From contig CAILMI010000026.1 of the NCBI GenBank assembly GCA_903835255.1, positions 2,740-66,739 of the forward strand: DNA of 64,000 nt, in the 5' to 3' direction. The notes beneath the pieces are model-generated. The model was not told where the DNA came from and ran no database searches. It saw nothing but the letters and a program-made list of their open reading frames with translations. The DNA comes from an uncultured Verrucomicrobia subdivision 3 bacterium. GTDB lineage: Bacteria > Verrucomicrobiota > Verrucomicrobiia > Limisphaerales > UBA11358. Every line of letters starts with the position of its first letter. Within the stretch, counting starts at the first letter, position 1. A program made the position numbers and the translations under genes. Positions 31,367-44,929 of this stretch are shown piece after piece.

Positions 31367-31789
31367 TTACTTCTTGGTTTCGGGCTTGGCTTCGACCGCC
31401 GGAGCGGGTTCGGCGGCCGCGGGGGCTTCCGCCACAAAATCCACCCATTCCAAAATGGCGCGCTGGGCGGCATCGCCGTTGCGCTGATTCATCTTGATGA
31501 TGCGGGTGTAACCGCCCTTGCGGTCTTTGAAAGCAGGGGCAATGTCCTTGAACAGGATCTTGGCCGCATCTTCCTGATGCAGGCGGGCCACCGCGAGGCG
31601 GCGATCATGAATGGTGCCTTTCTTGCCGAGCGTGACCATTTTTTCAGCGACCGAGCGGGCGGCTTTAGCCTTGGCCAGAGTCGTGGTGATCCGCTTGTGC
31701 AGGATGAGGCTGCAGACCATGTTGGCAAGCATCGCATTGCGGTGCTCGGACGTGCGGCCCAGTTTGGCCGTTCTTTTAAGATGACGCAT
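31367..31789 (-). CDS. rplQ: 50S ribosomal protein L17
   Basis: MRHLKRTAKLGRTSEHR, GGYTRI. Confidence 0.97.
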   Translation of the reverse strand: MRHLKRTAKLGRTSEHRNAMLANMVCSLILHKRITTTLAKAKAARSVAEKMVTLGKKGTIHDRRLAVARLHQEDAAKILFKDIAPAFKDRKGGYTRIIKMNQRNGDAAQRAILEWVDFVAEAPAAAEPAPAVEAKPETKK

Positions 31790-31798
31790 ATGCTTTCC

Positions 31799-32815
31799 TT
31801 ACTCGGCTTTCTGTTCTTCCTTCGGAGTGTTGTCAATCAGCCCAGGCTCGAAGCTCATGCCCAAGGCCAGACCCAGCGCGGTCAGCTTGTCTTTGATTTC
31901 ATTCAAGGACTTCTTGCCGAAATTGCGGTATTTGAGCATCTCCTGCTCACTCTTCATCGCCAGCTGGCCGACGGAGGTGATGTTGGCGTTGTTTAGGCAG
32001 TTGGCGGCGCGCACGCTCAATTCGATCTCGTTGACGCTCATGGCCAGCAGCTTTTTCTTCTTGGAATGTTCCTCGTCCTGCTTGTCAGCAGCCTCTTCAA
32101 ATTCCACCGCGTTTTTGTCGTAGCCGACAAATACCTCGAGGTGTTTTGACAAAATGGCTGAGGACTGGGTGAGCACGTCATCGGGCGTCAGGCGGCCGTC
32201 GGTCCAGACTTCCAAGACCAGGCGGTCGTAGTCGGTGCGATTGCCCACGCGGGCGGCTTCCACAGCATAACGCACGCGGCTGACCGGAGAGAACAGGGAG
32301 TCAATGGCCACCACGCCGATGGCCTGGCCGGACTTCTTGTTTTCGTCGCTCGGACAAAAACCGCGGCCGACCTTGACGGTCAGCTCCATCTCAAACTTTT
32401 TCTTTTTATCCAGCGTACAGATCAGCTGGGTCGGATTAACCACCTCGAGGTTCTGATTAGTCTGGATGTCGGCGGCGGTCACAGCGCCCTCGCGGTTGAC
32501 GGAGAGAAGCAGCGTCTGCTCGTCGCGGGTGTGGGCTTTAAATTTCACCTTCTTCAGGTTCAGCACGATGTCCGTCATGTCTTCCACCACGCCTTCGATG
32601 GTGGCAAACTCATGCATGGCGCCGTCCACCTTCAGGGAGGTGATGGCCGCGCCCTCCAGCGAGGAGAGCAGCACGCGGCGAAGGGAGTTCCCGACGGTGT
32701 GGCCGTACCCGGTTTCAAAGGGATCGGCGACAAATTTAGCGTAGGTGGCAGTGGCCGAGGCTTCGTCCTTCTGCAACCGCTTCGGCATTTCAAAACGTCC
32801 AAGTCTGACTGGCAT
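31799..32815 (-). CDS. rpoA: RNA polymerase alpha subunit
   Basis: GYGHTVGNSLRRVLLSS, RTDYDRL, ELSVRAANCL, NFGKKSL. Confidence 0.98.
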   Translation of the reverse strand: MPVRLGRFEMPKRLQKDEASATATYAKFVADPFETGYGHTVGNSLRRVLLSSLEGAAITSLKVDGAMHEFATIEGVVEDMTDIVLNLKKVKFKAHTRDEQTLLLSVNREGAVTAADIQTNQNLEVVNPTQLICTLDKKKKFEMELTVKVGRGFCPSDENKKSGQAIGVVAIDSLFSPVSRVRYAVEAARVGNRTDYDRLVLEVWTDGRLTPDDVLTQSSAILSKHLEVFVGYDKNAVEFEEAADKQDEEHSKKKKLLAMSVNEIELSVRAANCLNNANITSVGQLAMKSEQEMLKYRNFGKKSLNEIKDKLTALGLALGMSFEPGLIDNTPKEEQKAE

Positions 32816-32922
32816 AATGTTCCTTCAACAATTTTAATCTGATTCCGTCGGCCATTATTCCCGCAGCCAACGGAACCCGTTTAATTGTTTTTTTGTCCCG
32901 CACCCGCGGGACGGGTTTAGGG

Positions 32923-33531
32923 TTAACGGGAATAAAATTCGACGACGGCCTGTTCGTTGGCGATCGGCTGGATTTCGTCGCGGGTCGGGATGCGCATGAC
33001 CACGCCCTTGAACTCTTCCTTGTTCAGGGACAACCAGTCCGGCACGGCGCGGCTGGTGGTGACTTCCATGTTTTTGGTCGCCAGCTGGCGCGACACGTTG
33101 TGATTCTTGACGGCGATCACATCATTCACCTTCAGGGCATAGGAGGGGATGTTGACCTTGCGGCCTTTGACGGTGATGTGGCCATGGCAGACCATCTGGC
33201 GGGCGGCGGCGCGGGTGTTGGCTAATCCGAGGTGGAACACCACGTTGTCCAAGCGGGTCTCCAGGATTTGGAGCATCTGCTCGCCGGTGACGCCGCGGCG
33301 GCGGAGGGCTTTTTCATACACGCCACGGAACTGCTTTTCCATGAGGCCGTAGAAATAACGGAACTTCTGCTTCTCGATCAGGCCCAGGCCATAATCGGTC
33401 GTCTTGCGGCGCGACTTCGGCCCGTGAACACCGGGACCGTAGTTGCGGCGTTCAAGATATTTCGTCGGGCCGAAAATCGGAATTCCGAAACGGCGGCTGA
33501 TGCGGACGCGGGGACCTGTATAACGAGCCAT
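32923..33531 (-). CDS. rpsD: 30S ribosomal protein S4
   Basis: MARYTGP, ETRLDNVV, VNIPSY. Confidence 0.98.
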   Translation of the reverse strand: MARYTGPRVRISRRFGIPIFGPTKYLERRNYGPGVHGPKSRRKTTDYGLGLIEKQKFRYFYGLMEKQFRGVYEKALRRRGVTGEQMLQILETRLDNVVFHLGLANTRAAARQMVCHGHITVKGRKVNIPSYALKVNDVIAVKNHNVSRQLATKNMEVTTSRAVPDWLSLNKEEFKGVVMRIPTRDEIQPIANEQAVVEFYSR

Positions 33532-33533
33532 GT

Positions 33534-33569
33534 TTTAGTTGAGAGTTGAGCGTTGAGAGTTGGGTTGAT
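33534..33569. repeat. Heptamer tandem repeat (GTTGAGA/GTTGAGC) between rpsK and rpsD
   Basis: gttgaga gttgagc gttgaga gttgggt visible. Confidence 0.7.
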
Positions 33570-34111
33570 TACACGCGGCGCTTCTTGCGCGGACGGCAGC
33601 CGTTGTGGGGGATGGGCGTCACGTCTTTGATCGTGCTGATTTCCAAGCCGATAGCCTGGAGGGCGCGGATGGCGGATTCGCGGCCCGAGCCGGGGCCTTT
33701 GACCCGGATTTCAACTTCCTTCATTCCATGGGCCATGGCCTGACGGGCGGCGTCTTGGGCCACCTGCTGCGCTGCATAGGCCGTGCTTTTGCGGGAGCCT
33801 TTGAAACCGACCCGGCCGGCGCTGGACCAGCCGATGAGGTTACCCTGAGCGTCGGTGATGGTGACCTGCGTATTATTGAAGGTGGCCAAGATGTTAGCGA
33901 TGCCCGAGACGACGTTTTTAGCGTGCTTGGCCTTGACAATCTTCTTGGCGTTGACGTCCTCGCCCAAAAGTTCGGCGGCGGTGGGTGCCGCAACCGTGGC
34001 GGGGGTTTCCGCAATTGCAGCGGTTGCCGGAAGCACAGCTTTTTCCGCGGCTTCAGCCGCGGGCTTTGCATCTTTTTTGGGAGCGGATTTCTTTTTAATT
34101 TCTTCGGCCAT
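33569..34111 (-). CDS. rpsK: 30S ribosomal protein S11 with N-terminal extension
   Basis: [35 protein letters not shown]; ATG 34111. Confidence 0.97.
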
Positions 34112-34129
34112 AATCAACAATTCAGAGGG

Positions 34130-34525
34130 TTAGGTGATGCCAGCTTTAGCGTTGGCATTGCGCTGCACGCCGACCGTCTTGCGCGGACCCTTGCGGGTAC
34201 GGGCGTTGGTCTGAGTGCGCTGACCGCGCACCGGCAGGCTGCGCATGTGACGGACGCCGCGGTAGCATTTGATGCCCTGCAAGCGCTTGAGATTCATGCC
34301 CAGTTCGCGGCGCAGGTCGCCCTCGATGACATATTTGCCGTCCTGGATCGCGTGCACAATCTGGGAGAGCTGCTGCTCAGTCAGATCCTTGGCCCGGATG
34401 GCGGGATCGATGTTAGCGCGCTCCAGGACCTCCCGGGCGTTGACTGGGCCGATGCCATAGATGTAGCGCAGCGCGATGTCGATGCGCTTGTTGGGCGGAA
34501 CTTCCACTCCGATGATACGTGCCAT
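34130..34525 (-). CDS. rpsM: 30S ribosomal protein S13
   Basis: [25 protein letters not shown]. Confidence 0.98.
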
Positions 34526-34534
34526 AAAATTAAA

Positions 34535-34648
34535 TCAGCCCTGACGTTGTTTGTGACGTTTATTCGAGCAGATGACGCGGATGACGCCCCGGCGTTTCAC
34601 GATCTTGCAGTGCTCGCACAATTTTTTTACCGACGCTCGAACTTTCAT
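34535..34648 (-). CDS. rpmJ: 50S ribosomal protein L36 (not in ORF track)
   Basis: Hand translation [37 protein letters not shown]. Confidence 0.97.
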
Positions 34649-34651
34649 TTT

Positions 34652-34870
34652 CTAAATCGTTTTGTTTTCCGGCAAAATTCGCCCCACTGACAGGTCGTAA
34701 GGCGTCAATTGCAATGTTACTGTTTCACCCGGTGCCAGCCCGGCAAATCCCGGCTTCGCCCGGCCCGCCACAAAGGCCAGCAGGCGGTGGCCGTTGGCCA
34801 GCTCCACCTCGAACGTGTGGGGCGACCGCGGCCCGATCACGACCCCTTCAACACAGAAGGCGTCTGCCAT
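34652..34870 (-). CDS. infA: Translation initiation factor IF-1-like protein, divergent
   Basis: VEGVV...FEVELANGH...PYDLSVGRI; syntenic position between map and rpmJ. Confidence 0.7.
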   Translation of the reverse strand: MADAFCVEGVVIGPRSPHTFEVELANGHRLLAFVAGRAKPGFAGLAPGETVTLQLTPYDLSVGRILPENKTI

Positions 34871-35619
34871 GTCAAAATCTCCGGTTCACCCCCGGTGACT
34901 AGCACCGTATGCTCAAAATGGGCTGATAGTGAACCATCCCGCGTCACCACTGTCCAGCCGTCTTTCAAAATTTTTACGTCTGCAGCCCCCGCATTGACCA
35001 TCGGCTCAATCGCCAGCGTCATGCCCGGCCGCAGTTTCTGGTCCATCTTGCCGTCCACAAAATTAGGAATCTGCGGCTCTTCATGCAACGAACGACCCAC
35101 GCCGTGACCCACAAATTCCCGGACGACACTGAAGCCGTGACCCTCGACATAGCCCTGAATCGCGCGCGAGATGTCGGACACCCGGTTGCCCGCAACTGCC
35201 GCCGCAATGCCCAGCGCCAGAGATTTTTCAGTCACGTCCATCAACTGCTGGGCCAAAACGCCGCACCCGCCCACTGCCATCGTCCAGGCGGTGTCGCCGA
35301 TAAAACCGCGGTACACCACGCCCACGTCCACGCTGACAATGTCGCCAAACCGGAGTTCGCGGTCATTGGCCAGTCCGTGCACGACTTCTTCATTCACCGA
35401 AATGCATGTCTGGCACGGGTACTTGCGGTACCCCAGAAACGCGCTTTTGGCCCCGTGCGCTGCCATCCGTTCGCCGGCAAACCGGTCCACCTGATTAGTG
35501 GTCACCCCCGGGCGAATAAACCCAAGGATTTCAGCCAATACTTTGCCCGCCACTGCGCCGGCCAAACGCATCGCCTCCAAATCCGCGCCGCTCTTGAGGA
35601 TAATCTTCTCCACAAACAC
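34837..35619 (-). CDS. map: Methionine aminopeptidase type I
   Basis: SVNEEVVHG, GHGVGRSLHEEP, AIEPMV, SAHFEHT. Confidence 0.96.
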   Translation of the reverse strand: MFVEKIILKSGADLEAMRLAGAVAGKVLAEILGFIRPGVTTNQVDRFAGERMAAHGAKSAFLGYRKYPCQTCISVNEEVVHGLANDRELRFGDIVSVDVGVVYRGFIGDTAWTMAVGGCGVLAQQLMDVTEKSLALGIAAAVAGNRVSDISRAIQGYVEGHGFSVVREFVGHGVGRSLHEEPQIPNFVDGKMDQKLRPGMTLAIEPMVNAGAADVKILKDGWTVVTRDGSLSAHFEHTVLVTGGEPEILTWQTPSVLKGS

Positions 35620-35622
35620 CGC

Positions 35623-37017
35623 TTAAAGACGGCCGCGCACCCGACCCTTTTTCAGGAAACCGTCGTAATGGCGCATCAGCAGGTGCGATTCAATCTGGCG
35701 CATCGTGTCCAGCAATACCCCGACGGCGATCAGCACGCTGGTGCCGCCGAAAAACTGGGACACATTCTGCGGAATATTCATTTCCTTCGAGAGGATTATG
35801 GGGATGGTGGCAATCACGGTCAGGAAAATGGCCCCCGCCAGCGTGATCCGGCTCATTGCCTTGTGCAGGTAGTCACTGGTCCCCTGCCCTGGGCGGACGC
35901 CGGGGATGTAGCCGCCGTTCTTCTTCAAATCATCCGCGATCTGCAATTCGTTGAACTGGGTGGCCACCCAGAAATACGAGAAGAACAGGATCATCACCGC
36001 ATAGAAAGCCAGATAGGGGACCGAGCCGGGATTGAGAGCCTGGGCGATGCCGAGGAAGATGTTTTTCAAGAACGGCTGGCTCACGAAATTTCCGAGATGT
36101 AAAAAGATCGGCTGGGGGAACATCAAAATGGATTGAGCGAAAATAATCGGCATCACGCCAGCGTAATTGACCTTGAGCGGCATGAAAGACGTTCCCCCTG
36201 CGTACATCTTGCGTCCGACAGCCCGCTGCGCGTACTGCACGGGGATCTTGCGCTGAGCCTGGGTGACGGCAATCACCCCTGCCACCACGCTGACCAGGAG
36301 CAGAATCATCACCGAACCCGTCCCGATCAGGTGCGGGTGGTTATCGCCGCCGCCGGTGGGGAAAAACATATCCTGGAGCCCAGTGACTGCCAAGGGGAGG
36401 CGGGCGACAATGCCGATGGTGATGATTAGAGAAATGCCGTTGCCAATGCCGCGCTCGGTGATCTGCTCGCCCAGCCACATAAGAAGCATGGTGGCCGTGG
36501 TCATGATCAACACCGTCTGAATGCGATACCACCAGATATGATCCAGATCATAAATGAGGGGACGGCCGATGCCGGGAAACAGTTTTTCAGGGTTTTCCCA
36601 GCCGATGGCAAAAAACAGTCCTTGGGCCAAGCAGAGCAGCACGGTCAGGTAGCGGCCGTATTGGATGATTTTGGCGCGCCCGCCCTCTTCCCGCGCCAGC
36701 TTGCTCAATTTTGGCCAGACCGCCGTGAGCAGCTGGATGATGATGGTCGCGCTGATGTAGGGCATGATGCCCAGCGTTCCCATGGCGCAATGCTCCAGTG
36801 CCCCGCCGGCAAAGGTGTTGTACATCCCGAGCATCCCGCCGCCGTTTTGCGAATGGCTGGCAAAATAAGTTTGAAGCGCATTCCCATCCAAACCCGGCAG
36901 CCGGATCCAGGCGATCAGGCGGGCCACGAAAAGCACTCCCAGCGTGAACAAAATCCGGGACTTAAGTTCCGGAATCTTGACGCAGTTGCCGAACGTGTTG
37001 AGGATGGAGCGGAACAT
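35623..37017 (-). CDS. secY: Preprotein translocase SecY
   Basis: LGIMPYISATII, GIGNGISLII, GVMPIIFA, IPGVRPG, GGTSVLIAVGV. Confidence 0.98.
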   Translation of the reverse strand: MFRSILNTFGNCVKIPELKSRILFTLGVLFVARLIAWIRLPGLDGNALQTYFASHSQNGGGMLGMYNTFAGGALEHCAMGTLGIMPYISATIIIQLLTAVWPKLSKLAREEGGRAKIIQYGRYLTVLLCLAQGLFFAIGWENPEKLFPGIGRPLIYDLDHIWWYRIQTVLIMTTATMLLMWLGEQITERGIGNGISLIITIGIVARLPLAVTGLQDMFFPTGGGDNHPHLIGTGSVMILLLVSVVAGVIAVTQAQRKIPVQYAQRAVGRKMYAGGTSFMPLKVNYAGVMPIIFAQSILMFPQPIFLHLGNFVSQPFLKNIFLGIAQALNPGSVPYLAFYAVMILFFSYFWVATQFNELQIADDLKKNGGYIPGVRPGQGTSDYLHKAMSRITLAGAIFLTVIATIPIILSKEMNIPQNVSQFFGGTSVLIAVGVLLDTMRQIESHLLMRHYDGFLKKGRVRGRL

Positions 37018-37031
37018 GAATGAATGCTGCG

Positions 37032-37505
37032 TCAGGCCTTGGCCGCCGAGACAGATTTACGGGCAGCCACCTCGCAGGTGCCGCCCTTGGCCTCAATCTT
37101 AGCACGGGCCGAAGCGCTGAAGGCACTGGCAATCACGGTCAGTTTTTTGGATAACTCCCCGTTGCCCAGAATCTTGACGCCGTCCGACCGGCCGTTGGAA
37201 AGGCCCACCGCCTGCAATGCCAGCTCGTCCACCCGCGCCCCGTCCTCAAACCGGTTGAGGTCGGAGACGTTGACACCGTTGTATTGTGTGGTGAACCGGG
37301 CGTTGTTGAAACCGCGCTTGGGCATGCGGCGGATCAGCGGCATCTGGCCGCCTTCGAAGCCGATGCGGATGGAGCTGCCGGAACGGGCCGTCTGGCCCTT
37401 GCCGCCGCGGCCGGCGGTTTTTCCGCGCCCGCTGGATTCGCCCTGGCCCAGACGCTTGGTGCGGTGTTTGGAGCCGGGACGGGGTTTAAGATTGTGCAGT
37501 CGCAT
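37032..37505 (-). CDS. rplO: 50S ribosomal protein L15
   Basis: GKTAGRGGKGQ, FEGGQMPL..R.PKRGF. Confidence 0.98.
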   Translation of the reverse strand: MRLHNLKPRPGSKHRTKRLGQGESSGRGKTAGRGGKGQTARSGSSIRIGFEGGQMPLIRRMPKRGFNNARFTTQYNGVNVSDLNRFEDGARVDELALQAVGLSNGRSDGVKILGNGELSKKLTVIASAFSASARAKIEAKGGTCEVAARKSVSAAKA

Positions 37506-37519
37506 AATAAATTAAGAAA

Positions 37520-38134
37520 TCAAGCCGTTGCCGGGATCGTTTCCGGGGCCTTAGGGGCCTCCACTTTTCTCATTTCCAGCCCGCGGCTTTTATAGATGGT
37601 TTCCCGCAGGCGCATGCTCAGCAGACCCTTGAGCGTGGCCTTGACGACGTTGGCAGCGTTTTTGGACCCGAGCGATTTGGTCAGCACATCCTTCACACCG
37701 ACGGATTCCAGGACGGCGCGGACTTTTTTGCCGGCGATAATTCCAGTTCCGGGCGAGGCCGGGCGCAGCAGCACTTTGGCGCCGCCGTAAGAACAATACG
37801 CTTCATGCGGAATGGTCGTGTCCTTGAGGGCCACCAGCACCATCTGGGCCCGGGCGACTTCGCCGCCGCGCCGGATGGCATCCGCGACTTCCGCAGCTTT
37901 GCCCAAACCGACTCCGACACGTCCTTTTTTGTCGCCCACCACTACTAGAGCGCCGAAACTGAAACGGCGTCCGCCCTTCACAACCTTGGCGGAGCGGTTA
38001 ATGAAGACGACCTTCTCGACCAGATCTTCGCCACCAGCGCCAAAGGAATTGGGACGATCGCCCGGAGGTTTGCGGCGGCCGCGATGTTGCTGGCCGCGTT
38101 GCCCGTCACCACCCGATTTATTGATTTCAGCCAC
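37520..38134 (-). CDS. rpsE: 30S ribosomal protein S5
   Basis: [27 protein letters not shown]. Confidence 0.98.
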
Positions 38135-38148
38135 AGTATTTATTCAGG

Positions 38149-38508
38149 TTAAAATTTTAATCCCGCTTCGCGCGCCGCTTCCGCCAGCGCCTTGACCTTG
38201 CCGTGATAACGGGCGCCGCCGCGATCGAACACCACTTCCTTGATGCCCTTGCCCAATGCATTCTTGGCCGCAAGCGCCCCGATGGTTTTAGCGCCCTTCA
38301 CGTTCGCCGCCACGTCTTTGGGAGCCGTCTTGCTCACCGTCGAAGCGGCCGCCAGGGTCACTCGGGCATCGTCGTCAATGAACTGGACGTGGATGTTCTC
38401 ATTGGAGAAGCACACCGCCATGCGAGGACGCACGCTGGTTCCGACCACTTTCTTACGGATGCGCCAGCGGCGAAGCTGGGCCAATTTCTGCTTTTTTTCG
38501 ATTCTCAT
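38149..38508 (-). CDS. rplR: 50S ribosomal protein L18
   Basis: RPRMAV, VFDRGGARYHGKV. Confidence 0.97.
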   Translation of the reverse strand: MRIEKKQKLAQLRRWRIRKKVVGTSVRPRMAVCFSNENIHVQFIDDDARVTLAAASTVSKTAPKDVAANVKGAKTIGALAAKNALGKGIKEVVFDRGGARYHGKVKALAEAAREAGLKF

Positions 38509-38544
38509 TTGAATGCGTCACGGATCTGGCCGTGACTAAAATTA

Positions 38545-39081
38545 TTATTGAACCGTCTTCCCTTCCTTGCGCTCGACGTGCTCGCCGGCGTAACGGACGC
38601 CCTTGCCCTTATACGGCTCCGGCGGATAATAGGCGCGGATCTCAGAAGCGACCTTGCCGACCACCATCTTGTCTGGCCCCTCAATCGTCAGCTTGGTATT
38701 TTCCTCAACCGTCACCTTGATCTGGTCGGGGATGTTGTAATTAACCGGATGCGAATAGCCCAGGGAGAGGTTGACCACCTTGCCGGTGACCGCAGCCTTA
38801 AAGCCGACGCCCTGAATCTCCAGCTTCTTGACGAAGCCCTCGGAAACGCCCTTGACCATGTTATTGACCAGCGCGCGGCTCAAGCCGTGAAGCGCCTTGG
38901 CCTCCGCATCGTCGCCGTCGCGGCTGACGACCAAATTATCACCCTCCACTTTGAGGCTGGTGCGCTTGGGCAGTTCCCAGTGAAGCTTGCCCTTAGGCCC
39001 CTCGACCGAGAATTTCTGACCCTTGACCTCCACCTTAATTTTGGCGGGGACGGCAATCGGCTGTTTTCCAATTCGCGACAT
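38545..39081 (-). CDS. rplF: 50S ribosomal protein L6
   Basis: MSRIGKQP, PEPYKGKGVRY. Confidence 0.98.
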   Translation of the reverse strand: MSRIGKQPIAVPAKIKVEVKGQKFSVEGPKGKLHWELPKRTSLKVEGDNLVVSRDGDDAEAKALHGLSRALVNNMVKGVSEGFVKKLEIQGVGFKAAVTGKVVNLSLGYSHPVNYNIPDQIKVTVEENTKLTIEGPDKMVVGKVASEIRAYYPPEPYKGKGVRYAGEHVERKEGKTVQ

Positions 39082-39093
39082 AACTTGAATAAA

Positions 39094-39480
39094 TTACCAG
39101 ATATAGCAGAGCACTTCCCCGCCGAGATTTTTCTTGCGCGCCTGCACATCAGTCATCACGCCCTCCGAGGTGGAGAGGATGACCACGCCCAGACCGCCCC
39201 GCACACGGGGAATTTTGGTGGCGCCCACATACTTGCGCAGGCCCGGCTTGCTGATCCGCTTCAGCCCTTCGATGACGTTCTTTTTTCCGTCATACTTCAG
39301 GCGAATCTTAAGGGTCTTGAGCGGCTTGCCCTCTACGGCCACGTCGGTGACGTACCCCTGCTGCTTCAAAACGTGGGCCACATTCTCCTTGATGCTGGAA
39401 TGCGGCAGTTCAATCGCCGGCAGCAAGGCCCGTCCGGCATTGCGGATGCGGGTCAACATATCTGAAATCGGATCGCTCAT
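39094..39480 (-). CDS. rpsH: 30S ribosomal protein S8
   Basis: DPISDMLTRIRNA, SKPGLRKY, GGEVLCYIW. Confidence 0.98.
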   Translation of the reverse strand: MSDPISDMLTRIRNAGRALLPAIELPHSSIKENVAHVLKQQGYVTDVAVEGKPLKTLKIRLKYDGKKNVIEGLKRISKPGLRKYVGATKIPRVRGGLGVVILSTSEGVMTDVQARKKNLGGEVLCYIW

Positions 39481-39485
39481 AAAAA

Positions 39486-39755
39486 TTACCAGCTCGCTTT
39501 CACCACTCCCGGAATCAACCCATTCAACGCCGCTTCCCGGAAGGTCAGGCGCGAACAGCCGAATTTACGCAGATACCCGCGGCGCCGTCCGCTCATCGAA
39601 CAACGGTTGACCACCCGGGTGGGGCTGGCGTTCTTGGGCAGCTTCGTCAGGCCCACGTAGTCTTTCTTCGCCTTCAATTCAGCACGGCGGGCGGCGAATT
39701 TCTTCACCGTCTCCTGCTTCTTCTTATTGCGTTCCAACCATGCTTTCTTGGCCAT
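39486..39755 (-). CDS. rpsN: 30S ribosomal protein S14, long (zinc-independent) type
   Basis: 89 aa; [17 protein letters not shown], without the CxxC pairs. Confidence 0.95.
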
Positions 39756-39759
39756 AAAA

Positions 39760-40302
39760 TTATTTCTCTGCGAACGGAAAACCCATCATCTTTAACAAGT
39801 CCAAGGCGTGGGCGTTGTCGCCCGCCGACGTCACAATCGTGATGTCCATGCCCTGGGTGCGCTTGATTTTTTCCAGCTCAATCTCCGGGAAGATCGCCTG
39901 GTCATTCACCCCGAAGGTGTAATTGCCGCGCCCGTCAAACTTGCGCGGGGACAGTCCGCGGAAATCGCGGATCCGGGGCAGCGCGGTCGCCACCAGCCGG
40001 TCAAAAAACTCATACATCTCGTCCTTGCGCAGCGTCACCCGGCAGCCGATGTTCTGGCCTTCGCGCAGCTTGAATTGGGCGATGCTGTGGCGGGACTTGC
40101 TGATGGCCGGCTTGCGGCCAGTGATGGCGGAGAGATCCTTGGCGGCATCTTCCAGCGCGCCTTTTTCCAGCGAGGCACTGACGCCCATGTTCACCACGAT
40201 CTTCACCATCTTGGGGATCTGGTGGACATTCTTGTACTGATGCTTTTCCTTGAGGGCCGGCACCACTTCGTTTTTATATTTTCCGTAAAGTCTTGATTTC
40301 AT
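39760..40302 (-). CDS. rplE: 50S ribosomal protein L5
   Basis: [29 protein letters not shown]. Confidence 0.98.
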
Positions 40303-40337
40303 TTTTAGTCGCCACGGATTTGGCCGTGGCAGTTAGT

Positions 40338-40613
40338 TTAGACGGCCGCCGCCGGTGCCGCGCCGCGCTTGCCCGCGCGCGCGTCGTACTGGGTTGCCGT
40401 CATCACGTTGGACACGTGCACCGACCCCTCGCGCTCCACAATCGCCCCCTGGGGATGCTGCTGGCTCTTGGCCGTGTGCCGCTTGATCATCTGCACGCCC
40501 TCAATGAGCACGCGCTGCTTGTCCGACAGGACGCCGATGATTTTGCCGCGCTTGCCCTTTTCTTTTCCGGCCAGCACAACCACCTCATCGCCTTTTTTCA
40601 CATGAAAATTCAT
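40338..40613 (-). CDS. rplX: 50S ribosomal protein L24
   Basis: VKKGDEVVVLAGKEKG, HVSNVM. Confidence 0.96.
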   Translation of the reverse strand: MNFHVKKGDEVVVLAGKEKGKRGKIIGVLSDKQRVLIEGVQMIKRHTAKSQQHPQGAIVEREGSVHVSNVMTATQYDARAGKRGAAPAAAV

Positions 40614-40620
40614 ATAATCC

Positions 40621-40986
40621 TTAGAGAACTTCCGGCGCGAGCGAGATGATCTTCATGAACTTCTTCTCACGCAGCTCGCGCGCCACCGGGCCGAAAATGC
40701 GCGTGCCCTTGGGATTCAATTCCTTGTCGATAATCACGCAGGCGTTGCGGTCAAAACGCAGGTAGGAGCCGTCGGCCCGGGGAATGATCTGGCGCGTCCG
40801 GACGACCACCGCGTCATGAACTTCGCCCTTCTTCACCGTGCCATCCGGCGCGGCGACCTTGACGTGAACCTTGATGACGTCGCCGATACCGGCGTAGCGC
40901 TGGTTGCGGCCCAGCACCCCGATGTTCCAAACAATCTTGGCACCGGTGTTGTCCGCCACATCCAAACTGGAACGAATTTGCAACAT
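40621..40986 (-). CDS. rplN: 50S ribosomal protein L14
   Basis: [27 protein letters not shown]. Confidence 0.98.
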
Positions 40987-40995
40987 AAAATCTTA

Positions 40996-41298
40996 TTAAG
41001 CCGACGCCGGGGTCGCCTGCACCGCGCGGTCCACGACTTCGACCAGCCGCCAACATTTGGTTTTGGACAGCGGACGGGTCTCCTCGATCCGCACGCGATC
41101 GCCCACCTTGGCCTCGTTTTTCTCGTCGTGGGCGTAGAGCTTCTTGTAGGCGGTCACAATCTTCTTATATTGAGCGTGGGGGAAACGGCGCTCCACTTTG
41201 ACGACGATGGTCTTGGCCATCTTGTTAGAGACGACTTCGCCCACGCGTTCCTTGCGGTTGCCGCGTTTCGCTTCCGGTTGTTTTACAGTTTCAGCCAT
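40996..41298 (-). CDS. rpsQ: 30S ribosomal protein S17
   Basis: [20 protein letters not shown]; ATG 41298. Confidence 0.96.
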
Positions 41299-41305
41299 AC
41301 AAAAA

Positions 41306-41503
41306 TTAAACCGTGGGTTTGCGCAACTGGGACATCCGCGTTTCGATGCGGGCGATGTCCTTGCGGAGAGTCCGCAGACGGGCGGGCTTCTCAAGTTGCG
41401 CGCTGGCCTGCTGCAGGCGCAGGGTGAACATTTCGTGGCGCAGATCACGGCCCTTGGCCGCCAGCTCCACCAGCGTCATATCTTTGGATTCAGCAAATTT
41501 CAT
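41306..41503 (-). CDS. rpmC: 50S ribosomal protein L29
   Basis: [10 protein letters not shown]; position between rplP and rpsQ. Confidence 0.92.
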
Positions 41504-41509
41504 ATCCGT

Positions 41510-41932
41510 TTAGCTCGCGTGATGATGCCGCGACACAAATTTTGTTTTGATTGGCAGCTTGGTGGCCGCCAGGCGCATGGACTCGCGCGCAATCGCCTCC
41601 GTCACGCCGTCCACCTCGAACAGGACGTTCGCCGGACGAATGACCGCCACCCAGCCCTCGACGGGCGCTTTGCCCTTGCCCATTCGGGTCTCGAGAGGCT
41701 TCTTGGTAAAGGATTTCTGGGGGAACACCCGGATCCAGAGCTTGCCGTGCCGCTTCATGTTGCGGGCGATAGCCACGCGGGCGGCCTCAATCTGCTTGGC
41801 ATCCATCCAGCACCGTTCCAGCGCCATCAATCCGTATTCGCCAAACGCCACCGTATGACCGCGCGTCGCCAGACCCGTGCGGCTGCCACGGTGCATCTTG
41901 CGGAACTTCACTCTTGCTGGTTGCATTGCCAT
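41510..41932 (-). CDS. rplP: 50S ribosomal protein L16
   Basis: [20 protein letters not shown]. Confidence 0.98.
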
Positions 41933-41949
41933 AACAAAAAATATCTAAA

Positions 41950-42630
41950 TCAGTTCACCGGGAGGGGTTTTTCAACCGGAGCCTGGGGGGCCGCGGCCTT
42001 CTGGGGCTTGTTTTCACCCTTGCAGATCCAGCACTTCACACCCAGCTTGCCGTACATGGTCAGAGCCTCGGCGAAACCGTAATCAATATTCGCACGCAGG
42101 GTGTGCAGGGGCACCCGGCCCCAGTGGTACATCTCGGTACGGGCAATTTCCGCGCCGCCCAGACGACCTGCGCAGCGGATCTTGATTCCCTCCGCGCCGA
42201 AATCCCGGGCGGTCTGAAGGGCTTTTTTCATTGCCCGGCGGAATGACACCCGGCGCTCCATTTGCAGCGCGATATTTTCGGCGACCAGCTGGGCATCCAG
42301 CTCAGGGGTCTTGACCTCGACGATGTCCACGTAAACTTCCTTGCCGGTCAACTTGCTCAAGTCTTCTTTGAGCTTGTCAATTTCGGAACCTTTGCGGCCG
42401 ATGACCACGCCGGGGCGGGCGGTCATGATAGTGACGCGGCAGCGGCTGGTGGCGCGCTCGATCAAAACCTTGGGCACCGAGGCGCCCTCCAACTTCTTCT
42501 TTAGAAAGTCGCGGATCTTGCGGTCTTCCGTCAGCAGGCCGCCAAAATCTTTTTTGTTGGCATACCACTTCGAGCGCCAGTCCTTGTTGACACCGACGCG
42601 CAAGCCGATTGGATTAACTTTTTGTCCCAT
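41950..42630 (-). CDS. rpsC: 30S ribosomal protein S3
   Basis: [31 protein letters not shown]. Confidence 0.98.
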
Positions 42631-42635
42631 ACCAA

Positions 42636-42968
42636 TTATTCGTCGGAAACCGTGATTTTAATGTGGCAACGGCGCTTAAGGATCGGACCGGCCGAGCCGC
42701 GCGCTTTGGGCGTGAAACGCTTGAGGGTGGTTGCGGTTCCGGCCACCGCCTCCTTCACGCGCAATGTTTCCGGCTTCAAATTCTTGTTGTTCTCGGCATT
42801 GGCAATCGCCGAGCGCAGGACCTTGGACACCAGGCGCGCCCCCTTGCGCGGCACGATCTGCAGCACTGCCATCGCCTCCAGCGCGCCCAGACCCTGCACC
42901 TGACGGACCACCTCGCGCATCTTCTGCGCGGACATGGGCACGTTTTTTAAAATTGCAAAAGCTTCCAT
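42636..42968 (-). CDS. rplV: 50S ribosomal protein L22
   Basis: SAQKMR, SAIANA, ARGSA; ATG 42968. Confidence 0.95.
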
Positions 42969-42981
42969 AAAAACGATTGGA

Positions 42982-43263
42982 CTATTTGGCCTCCGCCTTG
43001 GCCGTGTGCGCGCCGTGTTTCTTGAAGGTGCGCGTGAGCGAAAATTCACCCAGCTTGTGGCCCACCATGTTTTCGGTGACGAACACCGGGTTGAAAATCT
43101 TGCCGTTGTGAACGGTGAAGGTCAGGCCGATGAATTCCGGCGTGATGGTTGAGCGCCGCGACCAGGTCTTGATCGGGGTCTTCTGATTGGTCGCCTTAGC
43201 CTTCTGGATTTTGTCCAGCAGGCTGAAATCCACAAACGGACCCTTTTTAATCGAACGTCCCAT
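42982..43263 (-). CDS. rpsS: 30S ribosomal protein S19
   Basis: [22 protein letters not shown]. Confidence 0.98.
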
Positions 43264-43269
43264 AAAAAA

Positions 43270-44124
43270 TTATTTGTTTTTCATCGGCAAACCGTTTCTC
43301 TGAACCACGATGAAGCGGTTTGAGGATTTATATTTGGCGCGCGTCTTGCCGCCCTTAGCCACAAAGCCCCACGGGGACACCAGCTGCTGCCAGCCGCCGC
43401 CGCCCTTGGATTTGCCCTGACCGCCGCCATTGGGATGGTCCACCGGGTTGCGCGCCACGCCGCGGGTGATGCCGCGATGACCGCGGTGCCGGGTGCGGCC
43501 TGCCTTGCCGAGAATGACATTTTCGTGCTCCGTATTGCCGACCTGTCCGATGGTGGCATAGCACTCCTCATTGATGCGACGGATTTCGCCGGACGGGAGC
43601 CGGATCTGCGCAAAACCCTCGTCGCGCGACATCAGCGTGGCCGAACCGCCCGCCGAGCGCACCATCTGACCTCCGCGGCCCGGGGTGATCTCAATGTTGT
43701 GAATCGCCGTGGTGACCGGAATGGACTTGAGCGGCAGAGCATTGCCCACTTCCGGGGGAGCCGTGGGGCCGCTGGAGATTTTAGATCCCACCACCACCCC
43801 GACCGGGGCGATGATGTAGCGCTTGTCGCCGTCGGTATAATCCAACAGCGCCAGGCGAGCCGAACGCATCGGATCGTACTCAATGGCCGAAACCACCGAC
43901 TGAATCCCGTGCTTATTCCGCTTGAAATCCACGAGGCGGATTTTCTGCTTGTGGCCGCCGCCGATGCCGCGCGCGGTGACGCGTCCGTAATGGTTACGGC
44001 CGCCCGATTTCTTTCGCGTGACAACCAGCGACTTCTCGGGCTTCGTCTTCGTAATATCGCTGAAATCTGCGAACGTGACGTAGCGCAGAGACGGCGTTAA
44101 CGGTCTAAAAGATTTAACTGGCAT
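43270..44124 (-). CDS. rplB: 50S ribosomal protein L2
   Basis: GRNHYGRVT, EYDP.RSA, RGVARNPVDHPNGGG; ATG 44124. Confidence 0.98.
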   Translation of the reverse strand: MPVKSFRPLTPSLRYVTFADFSDITKTKPEKSLVVTRKKSGGRNHYGRVTARGIGGGHKQKIRLVDFKRNKHGIQSVVSAIEYDPMRSARLALLDYTDGDKRYIIAPVGVVVGSKISSGPTAPPEVGNALPLKSIPVTTAIHNIEITPGRGGQMVRSAGGSATLMSRDEGFAQIRLPSGEIRRINEECYATIGQVGNTEHENVILGKAGRTRHRGHRGITRGVARNPVDHPNGGGQGKSKGGGGWQQLVSPWGFVAKGGKTRAKYKSSNRFIVVQRNGLPMKNK

Positions 44125-44247
44125 AAATAATATCCAAGTTAGCAACTCTTGGGAGCCGGCGAGCCATTATTCCTGTCCCCGTGAGGGATCAGTTGTCGGT
44201 TCACCATACTTGCTAACCTCTGCATTTTTAGGCGCAAAGGAAAAATG

Positions 44248-44295
44248 AATCTATCAAATGTAAAACGGGATGCAATCCTTTTTTTTATTTTTTTT
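44248..44295 (-). promoter_or_regulatory. Sigma-70 promoter for rplB: UP-like A tract, -35 TTGCAT, 16 bp, extended -10 TG-A-TAGATT
   Basis: On the minus strand: -35 at 44275-44270, -10 at 44253-44248, A-rich tract at 44279-44295. Confidence 0.6.
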
Positions 44296-44548
44296 AGGGC
44301 GGGTTAAAATACACAGTTTACCCGACGTGGCAGGAGTGCGGTGCGCGGCATGCGGCAGAATTGAATCTCCCTAGTAGGCCGCGGGCGGTCGCCGCTCTCA
44401 ACCGCCGGCCAGCTGCGGCGGGCGGATGTCGTTTCGGTTCAGCCAACCGCGTCCCCCTCTTTTCCCGGAGCACTGCGGCTCGCGGTTCATTCCCTAAAGA
44501 GAAGATTATTTCGACACAAATCCCGGCGACTCTGGTACCCTTCCAGGC

Positions 44549-44929
44549 ATGAACGACATCGATCTCACGGGGTTTTCAACCGCCCAACACGAGGCGCTTT
44601 TTGATTTGCTGATCCTGGCCATGTACGCCGACGGGCACCTTTCCTCGCCGGAAGAAGAACGCCTGCAGGAATTGTTGGCGCGCGGGGGATTCGCCGAGGA
44701 GGCGGACCGGCAGCGGCAATGGGATGCCGCCGTGACGCGAATCCGGCCTGGGATTCAATCGATTCAGAAAGCCAAGGAAATGGCCATGGGATTGGCGGGG
44801 GCGTTCACCGACCGCTCCCAGCAAAAACAGGTGCTCGTCGCAGTGGAGCAGATTATGACTTCCGACAACAACCTCAGCACCTGGGAGACCACCCTGCTAT
44901 CGGAACTGCGCTTGAAATTCAGAAGGTGA
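44549..44929 (+). CDS. TerB-like (tellurite resistance family) protein
   Basis: LAMYADGHLSSPEEE ... ADxxL-like C-terminus (MTSDNNLSTWE); extended -10 TGG-TACCCT 7 nt before ATG. Confidence 0.7.
   Translation: MNDIDLTGFSTAQHEALFDLLILAMYADGHLSSPEEERLQELLARGGFAEEADRQRQWDAAVTRIRPGIQSIQKAKEMAMGLAGAFTDRSQQKQVLVAVEQIMTSDNNLSTWETTLLSELRLKFRR

Follow-up and report, generated by a model that had tools for sequence, protein, structure and literature searches.

Ribosomal-protein leaders balance ribosomal-protein and rRNA synthesis, and nearly all those known to us come from Proteobacteria and Firmicutes. In Escherichia coli, the S10 leader controls an operon containing rplB, and feedback of an operon-encoded protein on this 5' leader is established (reviewed in PMC3616713). 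In Alphaproteobacteria, a candidate L2 leader lies before rplB-rpsS-rplV-rpsC; its authors rate its covariation '?' and propose L2 as ligand only as the product of the nearest gene (Eckert & Weinberg 2020, PMC7247131, Table 1). This motif is the only published rplB-associated candidate, and a literature search for a ribosomal leader in Verrucomicrobia found no description. To our knowledge, autoregulation by L2 has never been shown experimentally.

Here we analyse the region upstream of rplB in an uncultured bacterium of Verrucomicrobiota subdivision 3, within a stretch of 64,000 nt that was analysed as a whole and is referred to as the window. Comparative sequence evidence indicates that the rplB leader is a real, conserved folded RNA of one verrucomicrobial order, present only where L2 heads its own operon, and the best explanation is probably an undescribed cis-acting ribosomal-protein leader RNA.

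Locus, promoter and leader extent

The features of the leader, its promoter and its operon all lie on the minus strand of the window. There rplB (L2; 43270–44124), identified by the Pfam domains L2_N and L2_C and by ORF layout, is the first gene of its operon, with its start codon at ATG 44124–44122 and a gap of 6 nt to rpsS. The ribosomal-protein gene row that it heads extends down to ~31367 according to ORF layout; Pfam confirmation within the row covers L2 and S19, and the remaining gene names are readings of the layout. The neighbour upstream is a divergent TerB-like ORF (44549–44929), separated from the rplB promoter by ~250 nt of G+C-rich non-coding DNA (44300–44548).

No Shine-Dalgarno (SD) sequence was found before rplB and most genes of the operon, the upstream sequence being AU-rich instead. 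The rplB start region (44122–44133), as read from the sequence, consists of AUAUUAUUU followed by AUG. Throughout the row (31367–44124), almost no gene has an SD, and AU-rich runs such as AAUUUUUUAUG stand before the starts, despite the retention of CCUCC at the 16S 3' end of the same genome.

The promoter is strongly conserved and resembles that of the rRNA genes. An A-rich, UP-element-like stretch (44277–44298), recognised in the sequence and in its relatives, lies upstream of the −35 element; across 126 relatives, the 25 nt that precede the −35 hexamer average 71% A+T and 46% A. The −35 element TTGCAT (44270–44275), conserved as TTGCNN with constant spacing to the −10 element, agrees with TTGACA at three of six bases and was missed by a simple consensus scan. 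The extended −10 element TGATAGATT (TGnTAnnnT; 44248–44256) is conserved as TGnTAnnnN, with TG present in 119 of the 126 relatives at fixed spacing, and the complete pattern TTGC-N15-T[GT]nTAnnnN is kept in 126 of 136 unique upstream regions. The genome's own 16S rRNA promoter (C9:72374–72430, locus L213) shares the layout of the rplB promoter (44248–44298), that is, an A-rich stretch, cTTGCa, a 16-nt spacer and TGnTAnnnT, its −10 motif being TGATATTCT. Beside the rplB promoter, most relatives carry a G+C-rich discriminator segment, CGCGCUCC; G+C-rich discriminators are linked to growth-rate or stringent control.

From the position of the −10 element, transcription is predicted to start near 44241, which gives the rplB operon mRNA a predicted 5' leader of 117 nt (44125–44241). 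The length of ~115 nt given in a preliminary description, made from the letters of the window, agrees with the conserved promoter and with this predicted start.

Fold of the leader in the window

The 8-bp long-range pairing proposed in that description is present between GUUAGCAA (44217–44210) and its exact complement UUGCUAAC (44145–44138), as is the hairpin UCCCU-CAC-GGGGA that it encloses (44188–44176), and both belong to the minimum free energy (MFE) fold. By themselves, the pairings of the window do not clearly exceed chance, and the single-sequence evidence is weak: the fold of 141 nt has a z-score of −1.58, with 12 of 200 shuffles folding equally well, and the predicted 120-nt transcript (44241–44122) has an MFE of −35.5 kcal/mol and a z-score of −2.01, with 7 of 200 shuffles as good. 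By our own estimate, ~0.09 perfect 8-bp complements are expected in ~117 nt.

The MFE fold begins with P1 (44217–44240), a 5'-terminal hairpin of CCUUUGC (44240–44234) with GCAGAGG (44223–44217) that starts ~2 nt or less from the predicted transcript start. In relatives, the P1 segment varies in sequence and retains the hairpin, with a mean z-score of −2.2 and values below −1 in 88%. In two members of the family (L013 and L016), P1 contains an extra segment of ~40 nt resembling a second hairpin; in these and five further loci, 71–75 nt lie between the −10 element and the core, compared with the usual 30–37 nt.

The long-range helix, P2, joins the 5' strand at 44210–44217, of which the family core comprises the five nucleotides UAGCA (44215–44211), to the 3' strand at 44138–44145, which is seen in the MFE fold and in family variants. 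Between the end of the 3' strand and the AUG lie 13 nt, an AU-rich and SD-less segment; in most relatives this distance is 9–29 nt. Among the variants of the 5-bp core, CAGCA:UGCUG is the commonest, alongside UAGCA:UGCUA (the window), CAACA:UGUUG, CGGCU:AGCCG and CAGUU:AACUG. Two divergent members (L075 and L077) keep P3 and P4 and have no recognisable P2, and this helix seems not to be required in every lineage.

Within P2, the arm formed by P3 and P4 carries the most constrained part of the leader. P3 pairs GGUGAACCG (44197–44205), with an invariant CCG, to UGGCUCGCC (44158–44166), with an invariant UGG; both strands were obtained by RNAalifold from a plain MAFFT alignment and are supported by pair counts, with compensatory changes. 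Next to it lies an asymmetric internal loop, with ACAA on the 5' side (44193–44196; family consensus AUAA), whose columns are nearly invariant in alignments A1, A2 and A3, and GAAUAA on the 3' side (44167–44172; family consensus GAAUGA), likewise in near-invariant columns. Together with the flanking CCG/UGG and CYG/CRG, the loop forms the core CCGANAAC / GGAAUGAUGG, which persists in the most divergent copies and reads across the family, with almost no variation, CCG-AUAA-CYG in the 5' strand and CRG-GAAUGA-UGG in the 3' strand. P4 (44173–44192) consists of a CUG/CAG base, a bulged A and the UCCCU-CAC-GGGGA hairpin; its basal pair switches between U-A and C-G in 21 of 70 sequences, and double changes occur in all four upper pairs. 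A mini-hairpin, P5 (GCUC-CCAA-GAGU; 44145–44156), appears in the MFE fold and is confined to one clade; among relatives sharing the RCU-x...y-AGU layout, 31 have U-A as the fourth pair, 16 have C-G and 11 another combination.

Conservation, covariation and distribution

The rplB upstream regions of 23 relatives contain an obvious conserved block, for which RNAalifold, run on a plain MAFFT alignment as a control not fitted to any covariance model, predicts P3 and P4, 11 of the 21 pairs showing double changes. The covariance model R1, constructed from the rplB upstream regions of relatives, matched 54 of 151 genomes of the order (Verrucomicrobiota subdivision 3, Limisphaerales/Pedosphaera-type) exactly once each; these genomes represent 41 of 107 genera, and E values ranged from 1e-16 to 2e-4. 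A second model (R2), built from 70 matches, detected no copy in 150 genomes sampled elsewhere in the phylum.

A scan for the exact pattern, covering 185,579 species with one genome each, yielded at least 120 stretches; among the 80 stretches listed, 78 match R2 at 53–89 bits. Matching contigs bear record titles that refer to Verrucomicrobiota, 'subdivision 3', Limisphaerales or Pedosphaera. The leader was also observed on contigs of metagenome-assembled genomes titled Bifidobacterium, Acidoferrum, Limnocylindrales, Pseudomonadales, Akkermansia and others (oddly titled contigs: L089, L107, L111, L113, L114, L121, L124, L125, L133, L142, L149, L150, L155, L158 and L160–L162); their L2 proteins are 75–85% identical to that of the window, so that these organism titles are read as wrong labels or mislabelled bins. 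Pattern matches in Kangiella and Nocardia, which have neither a model match nor rplB, were discarded as chance. All copies checked (70 + 77) lie on the rplB strand, 9–39 nt upstream of the AUG, with five exceptions at 48–115 nt that carry insertions.

Covariation was assessed in two alignments which, being fitted to the model, are biased towards the structure and contain relatives that are not independent: A3 (70 sequences), with 91.1% of cells in standard pairs and double changes in 15 of 20 pairs, and A4 (71 distinct sequences), with 92.4% and 12 of 20, respectively. On the worst of five measures, the observed value was reached by 0 of 500 shuffles for A3 and 1 of 500 for A4, and sliding the partners by 1–3 columns reduced pairing to 23–53% (A3) and 24–54% (A4). 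Across the two separately gathered sets, P2, P3, P4 and its hairpin covary in ~130 distinct sequences, and the helices first drawn from the window are thereby borne out in its relatives.

Association with the operon split

In the genome of the window, rplC-rplD-rplW lie on another contig (C55), where they end against a convergent RhaT-like transporter gene. Both rplB and rplW were located in 137 of the 151 sampled genomes, and their positions were crossed with the model matches. Among the 52 genomes with a match, rplW adjoins rplB (gap ≤67 nt) in none and is detached in all 52, lying on another contig in 46 and on the same contig in 6, with gaps from 184 nt to 81 kb. Among the 85 genomes with no match, rplW adjoins rplB in 76 and is detached in nine; eight of these nine carry weaker copies at the right place, detected with filters off at 12.8–42.4 bits, and the ninth is truncated at the end of a contig. 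In the sampled genomes, then, the leader occurs wherever rplB does not immediately follow rplW and was not found where the two genes abut, an association that represents a pattern rather than a statistical test, related genomes not being independent.

The leader seems to have originated as the S10 operon was split between rplW and rplB. Such a split would have taken rplB and the genes downstream of it beyond the reach of any leader heading the old operon. At two loci (L032 in G077 and L225 in G155), rplW lies 291 and 184 nt upstream of rplB, respectively, and both leader and promoter are within the spacer; this arrangement may be an intermediate stage of the split.

Competing pairing near the start codon

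Alternative pairing close to the AUG had been proposed in the form of a hairpin, AGUU-GCU-AACU (44147–44137). This hairpin can be drawn, but it comprises 4 bp with a 3-nt loop and has no comparative support, and it is a different pairing, CCAAG (44148–44152) with CUUGG (44134–44138; −14 to −10 from the AUG), that recurs in relatives, in part of the family. Enforcing CCAAG:CUUGG in the window changes the fold from an MFE of −38.3 to −35.9 kcal/mol, a cost of ~2.4 kcal/mol. Because the linkers in the window, at 0–1 nt, are too short for this pairing to coexist with the full P2, it is read as an alternative state.

Related competing pairings occur in many relatives as UCCAAG(U):(A)CUUGG(G/A), UCCA(A):(U)UGGA or AAAGU:ACUUU, and the distant members L075 and L077, which lack P2, have a plain hairpin instead, CCGAG/CCGGG-AACAAA-CUCGG. 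Within the CCAAG group, the group's own duplex reaches −7.9 kcal/mol, against −4.0 kcal/mol for cross-type combinations; the AU-rich variant is no better than its cross-type controls, and competing pairing is not evident in 48 of 132 sequences. A universal pseudoknot was accordingly rejected, the pairing being strong in one group and absent or unconvincing in others, and CCAAG:CUUGG is regarded as a possible second state, not an established pseudoknot. At two loci (L054 and L095), an insertion of ~90 nt separates the P2 3' strand from the CUUGG segment and places the core 111–115 nt from the AUG; ACUGACUUGG is nonetheless kept directly before the start region.

Known families and rRNA mimicry

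At gathering thresholds, the only Rfam match in the window is a tRNA-Val, and the interval 44050–44400 matches nothing at E values up to 10, a result that supports a new leader; Rfam 15 covers published ribosomal-protein leader models only where these have been filed there.

Mimicry of rRNA was sought and not found: neither conserved strand matches, with up to two substitutions, the genome's own 16S, its own partial 23S or the complete 23S of four relatives. The own 23S gene (C9:74853–76610, loci L209–L212) stops at a contig end, near model position 1782, so domains IV–VI were taken from relatives. GAUAAC occurs once in 16S (~149) and once in the 23S peptidyl-transferase loop, which is the chance level for a hexamer. 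An E. coli 23S stretch that we take to resemble the 3' loop strand, UAAUGAUGGCC, was dropped as a counterpart, the 23S of the window's own lineage having GUAACGACUGAACG there. Inspection of helix 66 and helix 21, the L2 and S8 sites, respectively, showed only weak, partial and unconvincing similarity to the leader. Likeness to rRNA sites is frequent but not obligatory, being seen in about half of known leaders, and its absence is not decisive because about half show none (PMC7247131).

A boxA/antitermination signal at the 5' end of the leader was rejected: the rRNA leader and spacer of this genome have GCUCUUUGAAAA and GCUCUUUGAACA, to which GCUCCGUUUC in the rplB leader is a poor match. The leader contains no terminator-like site that could serve as an intrinsic terminator or attenuator, and no conserved pairing with the AUG itself was found. 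As to a site of repression, 13 nt separate the P2 3' strand from the AUG, and CUUGG occupies −14 to −10, with neither a terminator nor an SD to sequester; in the absence of a terminator and of conserved AUG pairing, the anatomy of the leader does not reveal how repression would take place.

Proposed function and mechanism

The element lies in the same-strand 5' UTR of a ribosomal-protein operon and has a secondary structure supported by covariation, as expected of a ribosomal-protein leader. The suggestion of a new ribosomal-protein autoregulatory RNA in the preliminary description is supported, as far as sequence analysis reaches, by covariation, by the position before rplB and by the lack of a matching Rfam family; autoregulation and the ligand are inferences.

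Comparison of relatives shows that a strong, rRNA-like promoter starts the ~117-nt leader, which folds into P1 followed by a junction closed by P2 and holding the P3/P4 arm. The mechanism that we propose builds on this fold. An operon-encoded ribosomal protein present in excess over rRNA would bind the invariant loop and the arm and lock P2. With the P2 3' strand ending only ~13 nt before the AUG, the bound, folded leader would hinder 30S binding at the short, AU-rich, SD-less start region, and through translational coupling the later genes of the tightly packed operon would be repressed as well. CCAAG:CUUGG may replace P2 and P5 as the other state of the switch in the window and its nearer relatives.

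As the first gene product, L2 is our first, tentative guess for the ligand. The other leading candidates, though together unlikely, are S8 and S4, both of them known to regulate in other systems and apparently encoded further down the rplB gene row as read from ORF layout; some other protein of the operon is likewise unlikely, and L4 acting in trans would be very improbable. It is doubtful that the ligand is anything but a ribosomal protein.

That a real fold senses a signal other than a ribosomal protein, such as temperature, an RNA-binding protein from outside the ribosome, or a small molecule or ion read by a riboswitch that responds to growth state (Mg2+, a polyamine or a nucleotide alarmone, for example), we consider quite unlikely. 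A near-invariant internal loop framed by covarying helices, with a possible pseudoknot, is also what riboswitch aptamers typically look like, rRNA mimicry was not detected, and the G+C-rich discriminator CGCGCUCC would fit growth-rate control at the locus. However, a riboswitch class normally governs several genes of metabolism or transport, whereas several copies beside metabolite-related genes were not seen here, exactly one copy per genome being present and always before rplB. No Rfam riboswitch family matches, and the element occurs only where rplB has lost its upstream operon partners, which would be expected of operon-specific feedback and not of a general signal.

A constitutive mRNA element that senses nothing, and either shields the long operon mRNA from 5'-end-dependent decay or gives SD-less initiation a standby or enhancer platform, is improbable. 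It would account for the placing of P1 ~2 nt from the predicted start and for a hairpin kept with free sequence, and leader architecture could matter for ribosome loading on operon genes that lack an SD, but stabilising hairpins need no 18-nt invariant loop across an order, a constraint that points to a specific partner. The last alternative, that there is no functional RNA and that promoter or DNA-level signals explain the conservation and chance the pairings, is close to refuted, for although the promoter just upstream is itself strongly conserved and the fold of the single sequence improves only marginally on shuffles, the conserved block lies 30–110 nt downstream of the −10 element, outside promoter reach, and compensatory double changes affect 12–15 of 20 pairs in two samples in which slid controls pair at 23–54%.

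If the preferred reading, a cis-acting ribosomal-protein leader, is right, several consequences follow. The presence of the leader tracks the rplW/rplB rearrangement almost perfectly, which would make it a clear natural example of a feedback element and a promoter arising at an operon split. Should the ligand be L2, a new protein would be added to the autoregulators, and with its SD-less start region, the element could show how leaders repress SD-independent initiation. A bolder version, which we put forward as speculation and hold to be rather doubtful as a whole, is that this is the first well-supported L2-binding autoregulatory RNA, invented together with an rRNA-like promoter at the rplW/rplB break, in which a two-state switch (P2/P5 versus CCAAG:CUUGG) gates SD-independent initiation.

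Comparison with known systems

The E. coli leaders of the alpha operon, regulated by S4, and of rpsO, regulated by S15, resemble the verrucomicrobial leader in having a compact fold near the start codon with a possible pseudoknot or two-state pairing, and in the mode of action that we would expect here, a hindering or trapping of the 30S subunit with no terminator involved. In contrast to these leaders, with which it shares no similarity of sequence or model, the present pseudoknot is only partly supported and the start region is SD-less. With the E. coli S10 leader, the proposed role shares the principle that one operon-encoded protein feeds back on the leader. The S10 leader, however, precedes rpsJ, is bound by L4 and acts by attenuation, partly via a terminator, as well as by translational repression, whereas the verrucomicrobial leader precedes rplB, has no terminator-like site and is separated from the L4 gene, which lies in the other half-operon on another contig. 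The alphaproteobacterial L2 candidate is, like the verrucomicrobial leader, a candidate structured leader directly upstream of rplB; the leader described here differs from it in belonging to another phylum, in its strong covariation and in having no Rfam match at E values up to 10.
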